The translations under genes were made by a program, and so were the position numbers. Positions 2,746 through 25,669 of a stretch of DNA of 56,672 nucleotides are shown here, in pieces; position 1 is the first letter of the stretch; each line of letters opens with the position of its first letter. This stretch comes from Eledone cirrhosa (taxonomy: Eukaryota): positions 1 to 56,672 of the forward strand of contig CAXHJY010000003.1 in NCBI GenBank assembly GCA_964016885.1, given 5' to 3'. The notes under the pieces were generated by a model. It worked only from the letters and a program-made list of their open reading frames with translations. It was not told where the DNA came from and ran no database searches.

Positions 2746-2838
2746 TATATATATATATATATACATATATATATATATATATATATATATATATATATAT
2801 ACAATATTAAATAAATGGAAAACTATATTTATAAAACC

Positions 2839-2915
2839 ATATTTATTTCATTATATATATTTCGGGGATATCATATTAACAATATGCTATGCCTTCATCA
2901 GACAAAATACAATAT
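2839..2915 (-). ncRNA. Type I hammerhead ribozyme motif (PLE A, sense-strand copy)
   Basis: Reverse complement of 6541-6617. Confidence 0.75.
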
Positions 2916-4450
2916 AAACAGTTTTATAGATAAATATATTCGACATACCGTAATAAACATCAACTTCATTTGAAGAGGTTCACTCTAGCAGTGAAAATAC
3001 AGAGAGAAAGAAAGAGAGAGAGAAAAGAGGGAAATAGGAAAGAAAGAAAGACAAAACGAAGAAAAGGAAGAAAAAGAAGAAAAAGAAAAAGAAGAAATGC
3101 ATGGGACAAAATAGAGAGATGGAAAAATAGATGAAGCGAAGAGCTTTCTGTAAAGAGACAGAAAGAGATATATATATATATAGAGAGAGAGAGGAAGTAG
3201 AGATAGATACATATATAAATATAGATATAGAAAAATTAGGTAGTGGGAGGTCATTTTGAGTAAGTGTATCAATGATGCATTTATTTATTTATTTATTTAT
3301 TTATTTATTTATTTAGCTCAAGTATTAATGTAAGGGAGATATATAGAGAGATATAGAGAGATATAGAGAGAGAAAAAAATTTAAAAATAGCCAGACATAT
3401 TCGAGGCGTAGAAAGCCCTATGTTTTAATGTATTAGTATTTATAAAACTTACACTATATTGTAAATATCAGTATTCCTGAATGAAACAAGTATTCACAAT
3501 GCGTGAAAATTCATTATCTTATGTTTAGTTTTTTTAAAAAATTCATATGTCTATGTGAATCCAACTGATTCACTCCGCAAATTCAAAGTTACCGGAAAAC
3601 ATTCTCAATGTGGTATAAAAATTTGAGCGTATTATTATTCTTGCGATTACTTTACAAGATTATCTATCAAGCAGAAATAGAGAGCAGATTTCAATATACT
3701 AATCGAAAATATATATTATATTATATTATAAGCAGAGATAACAATAATAATGATAATAAGTAAAAATATATAAAAATATAAAAATATAGAATAGAAAACT
3801 AAAAAAAGAATATTACATAATAAAAATATTGCATATTAAAAATACTACGTATAAAAAATATTACGTATTAAAACTTTACATATAAAAATATTAAAAATAA
3901 AAATTTACATATAAAAATCTTAAAAATAAAAATAAAATAAAATAAAAAATAAAAATATTATAGAATACTACAATACTAAAAGAATAAAAATAAAAATAAA
4001 AATAAAAATAATAATAAAAATAAAAATAAAAATAAAAATAAAAATAAAAATGAAAATAAAAATAAACCACAAAGAACAACCCTTCAAAGTTAATTGACAA
4101 TATATTGCCAAGTTCACTACAAGACAAAGCCAAAAATTATCTATCAAATCACATCTAGCAAGGAATATCGCAAAAAAAGATTATGATGTCCAATAATGTC
4201 TACATATGTTCCTATATTTAATATATAAGTTTATCAAGTGTAAGGTTAATTCAAAAAATTTGGAGCATCGGCTTTTAGGGTAGCTTAATTTTTCATGAGG
4301 AATGTTTAGATAAAAAATAAAAATAAAAATAAAAATAAATAAAATAAAATAAAATAAACAATAAAAAGAGTAAAAAGAGGGAATCAAAGATTTAGGAATC
4401 AAAAGATTTATCGGCTAGTTCTCATATAAATATAAATCAAACTAAATATA

Positions 4451-4954
4451 CTACATTTTAAATTTAAATTTATATTTAAACGTTGAGTTTAATCTATGTT
4501 TGCAACAACTGAATAAATTTGTCCGTAGGTTAAGGGAATTTTTAGATTTTAGTATAAAGAATATCTCCTCTGCGCAGAGGTCACATGTCTCAGAGGATGA
4601 ATTAAAAGGAATCCCTCTTGAGACTATATTCCAAGCCGTCGAATATCTAACGTTATCTAGCTTAAGTTGCCAGAGTACACCTGATAGTGCCGTTGAAGAT
4701 TTTTTATTTGGATCTGTGAAAGAATTCTTGTGGTTATTATAGCGAAGTTTAAATTCCGTCGATGTGGAACCGACGTAGTTAAAAGAATTAGAGTCAGTAT
4801 TAACATTACAATTGTATACTATATTTTTAACTAAGCAGTTGTTATTTAACGGACATTTAGATCTATCTCTACAGTTACATTTGTTAACTTGTATATTATT
4901 TATGCTATTATCAGTAGGTTTTAAGTTCCTATTATTTCTTCTATTAATATTTTG
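4451..4954 (-). pseudogene. C-terminal GIY-YIG endonuclease fragment of Penelope-like element A (open frame, no Met, absent from the ORF track)
   Basis: Manual translation: KCNCRDRSKCPLNNNCLVKNIVYNCNVNTDSNSFNYVGSTSTEFKLRYNNHKNSF...AWNIVSRG...CDLCAEEIFFILKSKNSLNLRTNLFSCCKH...KM*. It is homologous to the C-terminus of ORF 12633..14993. Confidence 0.9.
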
Positions 4955-6540
4955 ATTAAACTCAACGTTTAAATATAAATTTAAATTTAAAATGTAGTAT
5001 ATTTAGTTTGATTTATATTTATATGAGAACTAGCCGATAAATCTTTTGATTCCTAAATCTTTGATTCCCTCTTTTACTCTTTTTATTGTTTATTTTATTT
5101 TATTTTATTTATTTTTATTTTTATTTTTATTTTTTTATCTAAACATTCCTCATGAAAAATTAAGCTACCCTAAAAGCCGATGCTCCAAATTTTTTGAATT
5201 AACCTTACACTTGATAAACTTATATATTAAATATAGGAACATATGTAGACATTATTGGACATCATAATCTTTTTTTGCGATATTCCTTGCTAGATGTGAT
5301 TTGATAGATAATTTTTGGCTTTGTCTTGTAGTGAACTTGGCAATATATTGTCAATTAACTTTGAAGGGTTGTTCTTTGTGTTTATTTTTATTTTCATTTT
5401 TATTTTTATTTTTATTTTTATTTTTATTTTTATTTTTATTATTATTTTTATTTTTATTTTTATTTTTATTCTTTTAGTATTGTAGTATTCTATAATATTT
5501 TTATTTTTTATTTTATTTTATTTTTATTTTAATATTTTTATATGTAAATTTTTATTTTTAATATTTTTATATGTAAAGTTTTAATACGTAATATTTTTTA
5601 TACGTAGTATTTTTAATATGCAATATTTTTATTATGTAATATTCTTTCGTAATATTCTTTTTTTAGTTTTCTATTCTATATTTTTATATTTTTATATATT
5701 TTTACTTATTATCATTATTATTGTTATCTCTGCTTATAATATAATATAATATATATTTTCGATTAGTATATTGAAATCTGCTCTCTATTTCTGCTTGATA
5801 GATAATCTTGTAAAGTAATCGCAAGAATAATAATACGCTCAAATTTTTATACCACATTGAGAATGTTTTCCGGTAACTTTGAATTTGCGGAGTGAATCAG
5901 TTGGATTCACATAGACATATGAATTTTTTAAAAAAACTAAACATAAGATTGAATTTTCACGCATTGTGAATACTTGTTTCATTCAGGAATACTGATATTT
6001 ACAATATAGTGTAAGTTTTATAAATACTAATACATTAAAACATAGGGCTTTCTACGCCTCGAATATGTCTGGCTATTTTTAAATTTTTTTTCTCTCTCTA
6101 TATCTCTCTATATCTCTCTATATATCTCCCTTACATTAATACTTGAGCTAAATAAATAAATAAATAAATAAATAAATAAATGCATCATTGATACACTTAC
6201 TCAAAATGACCTCCCACTACCTAATTTTTCTATATCTATATTTATATATGTATCTATCTCTACTTCCTCTATATATATATATATATATCTCTTTCTGTCT
6301 CTTTACAGAAAGCTCTTCGCTTCATCTATTTTTCCATCTCTCTATTTTGTCCCATGCATTTCTTCTTTTTCTTTTTCTTCTTTTTCTTCCTTTTCTTCGT
6401 TTTGTCTTTCTTTCTTTCCTATTTCCCTCTTTTCTCTCTCTCTTTCTTTCTCTCTGTATTTTCACTGCTAGAGTGAACCTCTTCAAATGAAGTTGATGTT
6501 TATTACGGTATGTCGAATATATTTATCTATAAAACTGTTT

Positions 6541-6617
6541 ATATTGTATTTTGTCTGATGAAGGCATAGCATATTGTTAATATGATATCCCCGAAATATA
6601 TATAATGAAATAAATAT
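6541..6617 (+). ncRNA. Type I hammerhead ribozyme motif (PLE A, inverted arm)
   Basis: Stem I atattgtattttgt / atgaaataaatat; core CUGAUGA 6555-6561; stem II ggcatagcatatt-gtt-aatatgatatcc; GAAA 6593-6596; palindromic AU stem III; predicted cleavage after AUA at ~6604. Confidence 0.75.
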
Positions 6618-6746
6618 GGTTTTATAAATATAGTTTTCCATTTATTTAATATTGTAATATACTCCAAGTATTTGTCGAGTGCTTTTATATCAGTTATAAT
6701 ATTTACTAGTTGTAACCCAACAATGGTTTGATAGTACTGTACATTA

Positions 6747-23820: not shown

Positions 23821-23903
23821 GGCCCTTACTGATCAGTTTCGCTTTGTAAAACCTCATAAATCCGATGGATTCATGATGGAAAACCAAAGCTCATCAGAGA
23901 AGC
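23821..23903 (-). ncRNA. Type I hammerhead ribozyme (retrozyme, inverted copy)
   Basis: Reverse complement of 24581-24663. Confidence 0.85.
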
Positions 23904-24580
23904 ATTTTCCCATCCTAGGGCTAAACGTCCCAGGAACGACAAAATATACAACCTCCTGCCAGCTAATAAAGGTCTGAAAGGTCGTAAAAGTGACCCGTAT
24001 GTAAACTGGACCGAAGTAAAAGCGGGAAAATCAAAGACTTGCTGTCTACAATTACTACTAAAGAAATAGCAGCCTAGTAAAGCAACAGATTTGTTCTCAA
24101 CGGACGGAGAAAAAGGTATAAGTTAATATGTCCAGGGATACTAGGTACCCCTAGAAATACATAGGTTGTCTATGATTCAGGGTTGTTCAATGGTGTTAAT
24201 TTGATATTTTTTAATGTATTTTGAAAAATTGATTGAATTTTACTTGTTCTGCTTATCTTAATATTAAAGTTCTGGTGTATCAAATTAACACCATTGAACA
24301 ACCCTGAATCATAGACAACCTATGTATTTCTAGGGGTACCTAGTATCCCTGGACATATTAACTTATACCTTTTTCTCCGTCCGTTGAGAACAAATCTGTT
24401 GCTTTACTAGGCTGCTATTTCTTTAGTAGTAATTGTAGACAGCAAGTCTTTGATTTTCCCGCTTTTACTTCGGTCCAGTTTACATACGGGTCACTTTTAC
24501 GACCTTTCAGACCTTTATTAGCTGGCAGGAGGTTGTATATTTTGTCGTTCCTGGGACGTTTAGCCCTAGGATGGGAAAAT

Positions 24581-24663
24581 GCTTCTCTGATGAGCTTTGG
24601 TTTTCCATCATGAATCCATCGGATTTATGAGGTTTTACAAAGCGAAACTGATCAGTAAGGGCC
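24581..24663 (+). ncRNA. Type I hammerhead ribozyme (retrozyme monomer 1)
   Basis: CUGAUGA 24587-24593; stem II gctttg...caaagc with inner tcatgaatcc / ggatttatga; GAAA 24644-24647; palindromic stem III ACUGAUCAGU; predicted cleavage after GUA at 24657; stem I is short and GU-rich. Confidence 0.88.
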
Positions 24664-25065
24664 ACTAGAAGAGGTAAATATTTATATTATATTTTTTAAT
24701 GTATTTTGAAAAATTGATTGAATTTTACTTGTTCTGCTTATCTTAATATTAAAGTTCTGGTGTATCAAATTAACACCATTGAACAACCCTGAATCATAGA
24801 CAACCTATGTATTTCTAGGGGTACCTAGTATCCCTGGACATATTAACTTATACCTTTTTCTCCGTCCGTTGAGAACAAATCTGTTGCTTTACTAGGCTGC
24901 TATTTCTTTAGTAGTAATTGTAGACAGCAAGTCTTTGATTTTCCCGCTTTTACTTCGGTCCAGTTTACATACGGGTCACTTTTACGACCTTTCAGACCTT
25001 TATTAGCTGGCAGGAGGTTGTATATTTTGTCGTTCCTGGGACGTTTAGCCCTAGGATGGGAAAAT

Positions 25066-25148
25066 GCTTCTCTGATGAGCTTTGGTTTTCCATCATGAAT
25101 CCATCGGATTTATGAGGTTTTACAAAGCGAAACTGATCAGTAAGGGCC
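25066..25148 (+). ncRNA. Type I hammerhead ribozyme (retrozyme monomer 2)
   Basis: Identical motif 485 nt downstream; predicted cleavage after 25142. Confidence 0.88.
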
Positions 25149-25669
25149 ACTAGAAGAGGTAAATATTTATATTATATTTTTTAATTATATATATATATAT
25201 ATACATATGTATGTATATATATATATATATATATATATATATATATATATATATATATACATATGTATGTATATATATATACATATATATATACATATGT
25301 ATGTATATATATATATATATATATACATATATATATATATATATGTATATATATATATATATATATATATATATATGTATGTATGTATATATATATATAT
25401 ATATATATATATGTATGTATGTATGTATATATATATATATATATATATATATGTATGTATATATATATATATATATATATATATATATATACATGTATGT
25501 ATATATATATATATATATATATATATATATATATGTGTGTATGTATATATATATATATATATATATATATATATATGTATGTATGTGTATATATATATAT
25601 ATATATATATATATATATCTATGTATGTATATATATATATATATATATACATATGTATGTATATATATA

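Follow-up and report, generated by a model that had tools for sequence, protein, structure and literature searches.

What determines where hammerhead-bearing retroelements end when they are copied into (TA)n tracts? The question is raised by a stretch of 56,672 nt from Eledone cirrhosa (GenBank assembly GCA_964016885.1, contig CAXHJY010000003.1, positions 1 to 56,672; the whole stretch is referred to here as the window), which contains four elements with arms arranged head to head, namely two Penelope-like elements (PLEs), A and B; FB, a fold-back stump of an A-related subfamily; and R, a non-coding hammerhead retrozyme. Self-comparison and reading of the window revealed that the outer ends of all four elements are RNA-sense 3′ ends joined to (TA)n, and eight of eight outer ends adjoin such a tract. 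We assign a probability of about 0.65 to the reading in which these ends sit 4-5 bases before stem-loops that likely dock the element reverse transcriptase (RT), two complementary DNAs (cDNAs) being primed at the stem-defined sites.

Counted from the predicted hammerhead cut to the last element base, the ends lie at +52 in both A and FB, at +72 and +209 in B, and at +43 and +92 in R, and the opposite arm extends further by 88 nt in A (to 6744), 89 nt in FB (to 19752), 137 nt in B, and 49 nt in R. The four-element geometry described in an earlier, sequence-only reading of this DNA is therefore real. Its short-end distances for A and R (52 and 43 nt) and its overshoot for R (49 nt) were reproduced, whereas the short end of B was recomputed as 72 rather than 71 nt and the overshoots of A and B as 88 and 137 nt rather than about 90 and about 135 nt. 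The fold-back at 19307 repeats the end point of A, as had been stated, with identical short-end letters in the two elements, and the merging with (TA)n that had been noted for the sense ends holds for all outer ends. The tails are one-sided in the window (88, 89, and 137 nt); B shows partial tandem pseudo-long terminal repeats (pseudo-LTRs) with an inverted 5′-truncated copy, and A, FB, and R show the inverted copy. Enrichment of (TA)n flanks was also found in the relatives, i.e. 95 fetched loci of related elements, probably representing animal host DNA in metagenomes and bins: (TA)5 or longer is present within 250 nt downstream of 27 of 80 hammerhead calls, compared with 3 upstream, and the cut-to-(TA)n distance is bimodal (18 at 31-56 nt, one at 73 nt, and 8 at 96-140 nt). 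The long ends of A, FB, and B (6740-6744, 19748-19752, and 12498-12502, respectively) all end in TACAT, and A and B share no detectable DNA similarity.

In the window, five of the six testable ends are located 4-5 nt before a stem. A covariance model built from the relatives only ranks the stems of A and FB (the latter at 19669-19691, E 1.1e-3) first and second in 56.7 kb, and a gapped model ranks the B stems (12509 and 12371) and the R stem (24754, corresponding to +97) top, the best score of B being reached in 0 of 40 shuffles. B stem 1 and the R stem form with a 2-nt bulge in unconstrained folds. A weak stem just past the +43 end of R (score 1.4) was rejected.

The relatives carry two tandem bulged stem-loops of the form GCUC-Y...R-UY-GAGC-ACU between the hammerhead cut and the start codon. 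Among 48 families, two stems were identified in 17, one in 13, and none in 18, many of which stop before the stems, and an upstream stem was found in none; the spacing is 55-83 nt in the two-stem families. At inner pairs whose positions were not set by the search, 92, 64, and 58 of 98 are Watson-Crick pairs, compared with 49, 29, and 24 after shuffling, and two-sided changes number 81 versus 32, a value reached in 0 of 500 shuffles (alignment of 82 of 89 stems, inner length 8-18 nt). These shuffles ignore relatedness, and slid controls were likewise low. The motif occurs 146 times on the ORF (open reading frame) strand and 14 times on the opposite strand. Published Hydra consensi also contain the stem, and Hydra-1_Ajap starts 2 nt before it; Rfam gave no match for the stem in the loci of five relatives. 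In L079 (2591-2633) and L086 (5782-5822), the outer helix of the stem, which is invariant elsewhere, is changed on both sides (GCAC/GUGC), and several Hydra-type families are stacked end to end in one (TA)n tract in L082 (5700-10700), L088, and L092, including FB-like short-plus-long palindromes. In the 486-nt tandem of L089, no hammerhead core or stem was found in the stretches read.

The stems might instead serve transcription, translation, or recognition of double-stranded DNA by the nuclease, the ends adjoining them because the elements insert or are cut at their own UA-rich sites. Stem 2 does end 12-39 nt 5′ of an ATG in 35 of 37 two-stem leaders, and the Penelope tail, as cited in PMC11167929, is needed for nuclease cleavage of plasmid DNA. 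The covariation, however, requires a single strand, and two separate stems, each with an end at the same small offset, are unlike a translation signal; we regard this explanation as very improbable.

The relation between ends and stems was also found in the relatives, where 83 TA runs with unique upstream sequence provided 30 junctions with a second copy for comparison. A strict stem is present within 150 nt of 16 of these junctions, and 15 of the 16 fall at most 10 nt before it. In a separate count, 14 of 28 alignment ends lie at most 10 nt before a stem (8 at stem 1 and 6 at stem 2; binomial P ~1e-10). All 14 off-stem ends were kept, which by eye include two regex mis-assignments and about nine subfamily divergence points. 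The TA overlap at the ends of the relatives has a mean of 4.1 letters, compared with 0.9 in the leader null and 1.6 in the 12 nt before the stem, and no simulation reached this value; in the window the overlaps are 2, 2, 3, 3, and 4 letters, with 0 at R +43, and each is near chance when taken in the window only (P of at least 2, ~0.3). Other TA-like leader stretches are not used as ends in the relatives. A conserved stem-loop, and not TA microhomology alone, places the ends.

These results divide the proposal of the sequence-only reading that re-ligated circles are the template and that (TA)n microhomology alone picks both starts. Internal priming with pairing is supported by the overlap of 4.1 versus 0.9 letters, whereas the ends track the stems and leave other TA-like stretches unused, so that microhomology alone is already contradicted. 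Circular templates would fit the seamless passage through the predicted cut, seen in nine of nine window copies, and the identity of the R units, although members of that family elsewhere differ by 1-10%; moreover, a short-end copy loses both stems at its 3′ end, so that only a circle or a full tandem would pass on the ORF, and high levels of retrozyme circles occur in other animals (PMC7229834). Against them, Naiads, which lack canonical hammerheads, share the layout (PMC8557442), hammerhead mutants had no effect on insertion in vitro (PMC11167929), and two-unit tandems in the relatives L016 and L048 indicate that linear multimers are available. The combined proposal of circles and microhomology appears quite improbable.

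Several observations weigh against stem-defined priming. Fourteen of the 30 comparable junctions have no strict stem nearby, several of them being 5′ junctions or other repeats by eye; 8 of the 15 stem-adjacent junctions come from one assembly, and two are the arms of one element, so they are not fully independent; and the pairing of short and long ends, seen by eye in 6 of 8 cases, is not above chance. In the window, the relatives-only model misses the stems of B and R, the tolerance of the gapped model for changed outer pairs was fixed after the variants had been seen, and the best score of R was reached in 1 of 40 shuffles. The minimum-energy fold does not contain B stem 2, and the +43 end of R has neither a stem nor a TA overlap. 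For A and FB, the window lacks the element sequence that would follow the long ends, and the distance from stem 1 to these ends is 61 nt, compared with 27-42 nt in 17 relatives. G-U and A-C counts (15 versus 11) do not assign the action of the stem to RNA or to cDNA. The start site described in PMC11167929 is not homologous to the cut DNA.

The retrozyme shares the geometry at one end only. Its two ends do not correspond to the short and long ends of A and B: a stem adjoins +92, and none follows +43. In independent sequencing runs, the +92 end was found again in one contig of X1 and in 60 reads of X11, where the flanks differ, and it is also the point at which a contig of X2 departs; the tandem wrap joint is present in X1, X2, and X11, and clean support for +43 was not obtained in these runs. 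X1 could be the source sample of the window, though its flank differs. Pile-ups at 24721, 24768/24771, and 24919 (X11 and X12) were dropped, as they show AATT sites and mixed loose ends as in a restriction library, for which the enzyme was deduced. Those at 24700 were not counted for +43, since a G-to-T change at 24701 (22929 of 30289 in X2) creates an AATT site, and the depth drop in X2 after 24755 (28061 to 4413) was not counted either, because it fits +92 but may reflect a sister family. Depth in X2 is several-fold higher at 24671-24755 than over most of the R unit. Loose ends before 24663 in X11 and X12 (30 and 18 reads, respectively) belong to a sister family with a different palindromic helix III and the same downstream sequence. 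The R sense arm starts and stops in one 12-nt AT-rich stretch (24204-24215 and 25174-25185), for which the chance is roughly 1 in 20 if the two are unrelated.

No strand-change joint was listed in four runs, which also counts against our reading and favours fold-back read chimeras or assembly errors as the source of the inversions. The flanks, however, are not mirrored: CATATGTATG occurs 19 times to the left of R and 4 times to the right, its reverse complement 0 times on either side, and the flanking microsatellites keep a single polarity across R and FB (a test that is weak for A and B). The arm ends differ, at meaningful places, the centres are asymmetric, and the inversion joints hold filler or overlaps of 3-4 nt. 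The same layout is found in the relatives L082 and L087 and in print, so that an artefact is hardly credible. Inverted pairs in (TA)n can form without a PLE route, as indicated by a short non-PLE repeat placed head to head about a microsatellite (28862-29409 and 29822-30385; third copy at 38879-39408), in which the descriptor found no hammerhead.

In the mechanism that we propose, the RT-GIY-YIG protein would bind stem 1 or stem 2, and its GIY-YIG nuclease would nick both strands of (TA)n. The UA-rich stretch immediately 5′ of a stem would then pair with each freed DNA end over 2-8 letters; the two cDNAs would extend toward the 5′ end of the RNA, and short homology or filler would join them. 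The short end would result from priming at stem 1 and the long end from priming at stem 2, the tail corresponding to the stem spacing, a process that we take to be a form of twin priming.

A single RNA-primed cDNA whose 3′ end snaps back and copies itself would also fit B, R, and FB; the second end would then be where copying stops or nuclease resolution takes place, a position that the stem would mark in its DNA form. FB favours such snap-back, as its arms form a near-perfect palindrome about a 7-nt loop and each contains the same 85 nt of foreign sequence. The inverted arms of B and R are contained entirely in the 5′ part of the respective sense arm, and the three segments of R are identical. 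The inverted arm of B agrees with the upstream and not the downstream pseudo-LTR at the single diagnostic substitution (12079), although this lone substitution may postdate insertion. Self-priming has been proposed in PMC3846280 and nuclease resolution of the tail in PMC8557442. Element A, however, has its extra 5′ sequence on the short-end arm and its tail on the long-end arm, an arrangement that snap-back cannot produce: 4495-4953 (459 nt) occurs in the sense arm alone and the 88-nt tail (6657-6744) in the inverted arm alone. Since each arm holds sequence that the other lacks, neither was copied from the other, and A requires two RNA-templated copies. TA overlap is present at both types of end, as priming sites predict, and snap-back is in our view clearly unlikely.

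As to the template of stem-defined priming, the seamless run through the predicted cut in the window copies indicates that it is not a cut linear RNA ending at that site, and this part of the sequence-only reading stands. Because the stems occupy the interval between the hammerhead and the ORF that follows it, copying of the ORF needs an RNA with a stem after the ORF, i.e. an uncut tandem or a re-ligated circle, and for the coding elements we lean only slightly toward the former. Two-unit tandems are present in L016 and L048, and short-read assemblies may collapse tandems. In the in vitro system of the Poseidon element PAc (PMC11167929), uncut RNA is the main substrate, both strands are cut and extended, two internal start sites bound the tail, mutation of the hammerhead left insertion unchanged, and a dimer is predicted. 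The version of the stem carried by the retrozyme likely gives it access to an enzyme of the Hydra type. A broader model, which we consider doubtful, would have a clade-wide twin RNA signal in which two bulged stems seat a dimeric RT-endonuclease, so that both (TA)n strands are primed, explaining the tail and the inversion; the signal would be placed just beyond the hammerhead cut, so that after circularisation it would again follow the ORF, which would make up for the priming signal lost in every round, and animal retrozymes would hitch-hike with a compensated stem as passengers, resembling short interspersed nuclear elements, of a circle-copying PLE.

A and B are assigned by their motifs to the Hydra clade of PLEs with a C-terminal endonuclease (C-terminal EN+ PLEs). 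The B protein, for which 107 homologues were found among 8000 candidates scored, contains RWR (RWK in the alignment consensus), D115-K116-T117, YRDD, and a C-terminal YIG motif kept in 30 homologues; C673, C675, and C681 form its CxCX5C linker, and the same cysteines are present in A, which is truncated at the RWK/DKT region. A CCHH endonuclease motif was not seen by eye in A or B, Pfam and PDB profile searches of the PLE proteins gave no significant match, and a viral contig search gave 0 matches. The hammerheads of A and R were found by a descriptor, which predicts cuts after 24657 and 25142 in the two units of R; the mirror copy in A has its predicted cut after 2852 on the minus strand. That of B was missed by the descriptor and is recognised by core motifs and fold. 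Rfam listed no hammerhead family among 150 of 316 matches in the window, and only microsatellite-driven microRNA-type matches were present there. In FB, the CUGAUGA half of the hammerhead is replaced by ~85 nt of foreign sequence and the 3′ half is kept; this foreign sequence is present in both arms (19402-19570) and has an open frame on one strand. The B unit (6813 nt) exceeds the tendency of the Hydra clade (<3 kb) and the units of the relatives (2362-2847 nt), and an Asn/Lys/Thr-rich insert of ~100 codons lies between its RT and endonuclease (14100-14400), resembling the N-rich inserts described in PMC3846280. The relative L088 matches the published Hydra-2_Amil by eye. R contains no ORF of 100 aa inside a unit, its two 485-nt units and inverted arm are identical, and by sequence it is a non-coding retrozyme of two tandem units, each with a type I hammerhead.

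Table 1. Coordinates of the elements, stem-loops, and (TA)n tracts in the window. UTR, untranslated region.
Feature	Position	Strand	Description
Element A sense arm	2800..4953	-	5′-truncated PLE of Hydra type with hammerhead, long AT-rich 3′ UTR, and part of GIY-YIG; 2800 is the short end (cut +52)
A CxCX5C linker and GIY-YIG endonuclease fragment	4454..4953	-	41% identity to B over 105 aa
Element A inverted arm	4954..6744	+	Carries the long end; self-comparison and reading
A hammerhead	6547..6612	+	Type I, palindromic helix III; descriptor; predicted cut after 6604
A stem-loop 1	6661..6683	+	ACUC/GAGU form; 4 nt past short end; best match of relatives-only model, E 3e-4
(TA)n tract	6745..11208	.	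Target common to long ends of A and B
Element B inverted arm	11209..11705	-	Mirrors 12006-12503; long end = cut +209
B inversion junction	11706..11737	.	~32 nt filler, partly duplicated
B upstream pseudo-LTR	11738..12366	+	Preceding unit, 5′-truncated; hammerhead 12151-12303, predicted cut after 12294
B stem-loop 1	12371..12454	+	ACUC/GAGU, long extended stem; 4 nt past short-end position; present in unconstrained fold
B stem-loop 2	12509..12627	+	GCUC/GAGC, ~100-nt insert; 5 nt past long-end position, 26 nt 5′ of ATG
B ORF	12654..14993	+	779 aa, Hydra-type RT and C-terminal GIY-YIG; frame break close to C-terminus
B long 3′ region	14994..18550	+	204-nt duplication, TA/TG microsatellite; unit length 6813
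B downstream pseudo-LTR	18551..19177	+	With hammerhead; short end at 19177 = cut +72
(TA)n	19178..19306	.	Common to short ends of B and FB
FB	19307..19752	.	Fold-back stump of A-related subfamily; palindrome about 7-nt loop near 19486, with short end on the left and long end on the right; stem-loop 1 at 19669-19691
Compound (TA)n microsatellite left of R	22071..23734	.	Polarity same as right flank 25186-25670
Retrozyme R inverted arm	23735..24206	-	472 nt, same sequence as 24278-24749; overlaps sense arm by 3 nt; outer end = cut +92
R sense arm	24204..25185	+	Two identical 485-nt units and 12 nt; outer end = cut +43, no stem behind
R stem-loop	24754..24787	+	GUUC/GAAC form; 4 nt past +92 end; second copy at 24269
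R candidate second stem	24859..24877	+	UCUC/GAGA form, also present at 24374; not preceded by any observed end

Further repeats are present in the window. A decayed Hydra-like copy lies at 50200-51990 on the minus strand, with a plus-strand stem at its 5′ side (51889-51926; weak model match, E 2.1) followed after ~38 nt by (TA)n, which equals the long-end spacing; it is possibly a fifth element of the same layout. Two 5′-truncated copies of a long interspersed nuclear element (19992-22070 and 25671-28440), containing RVT_1 and a PHD-like finger and having (GAT)n ends, are ~95% alike and occupy the same TA tracts; we presume that they are RTE-like.

Published work already covers the layout with its inverted arm and tail, the targeting of (TA)n, priming at internal sites, and the idea of circular templates. 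The PLE layout, the (TA)n preference, and the one-sided tail are described in PMC8557442 and PMC3846280, circular templates have been proposed in PMC4209133 and PMC7229834, and the origin of the tail and the inverted arm is stated as open in PMC8557442. Literature searches, whose scope did not include most subscription papers and Repbase notes, gave no description of the stem pair, and the stem-loop positioning signal is apparently undescribed. The short covarying stem, from which both ends can be predicted to a few bases in many families, offers positions that can be mutated and a boundary rule for annotation, and it is a minimal cis-signal to test for (TA)n-targeted cargo insertion. The in vitro system, as far as covered in PMC11167929, leaves the start signal undefined. 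R adds insertion-level evidence that PLEs mobilise animal retrozymes, for which co-occurrence and similarity have been available so far.

Among the closest known systems are the Hydra-clade C-terminal EN+ PLEs (Craig et al. 2021, PMC8557442), which share the RT with C-terminal GIY-YIG, the RW(K/R), DKT, and CxCX5C motifs, the hammerhead in the pseudo-LTR, the (TA)n target, and the same partial tandem with an inverted 5′-truncated copy and one-sided tail. The window differs in its tails (88-137 nt versus 30-40 nt) and in the B unit (6.8 kb versus <3 kb), and the main and supplementary text of that work, figures not covered, does not mention the stem pair (0 matches for ‘hairpin’ or ‘stem-loop’). 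The Penelopes of Adineta vaga (PMC3846280) have the same inverted pseudo-LTR, optional tail, palindromic junctions, captured spacers, and trans mobilisation; their target duplications are visible and a self-priming model was presented for them, whereas duplications in the window would be masked by (TA)n. The circular-template model for PLE hammerheads (Cervera and de la Pena 2014, PMC4209133) likewise involves more-than-unit copying through the cut, and the portion of its text covered here proposes no start-site signal. PAc of Anolis (Frangieh et al. 2024, PMC11167929) shares the two internal starts bounding the tail, the cutting and extension of both strands, an AT-rich target, uncut RNA, and a predicted dimer; its starts, however, lie in one AC-rich stem-loop within the ORF and have no target homology, whereas here each start is immediately 5′ of a separate conserved stem, before the ORF, and overlaps (TA)n by 2-8 letters. 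Finally, metazoan non-LTR retrozymes (PMC7229834; bioRxiv 10.64898/2026.07.22.740005) are composed of the same non-coding tandem units with type I hammerheads, and a PLE mobiliser has been proposed for them on the basis of co-occurrence and pseudo-LTR similarity; R, in contrast, is an insertion in which one arm is inverted and one end, located before a Hydra-like stem, recurs; its cleavage is predicted and it may form circles.

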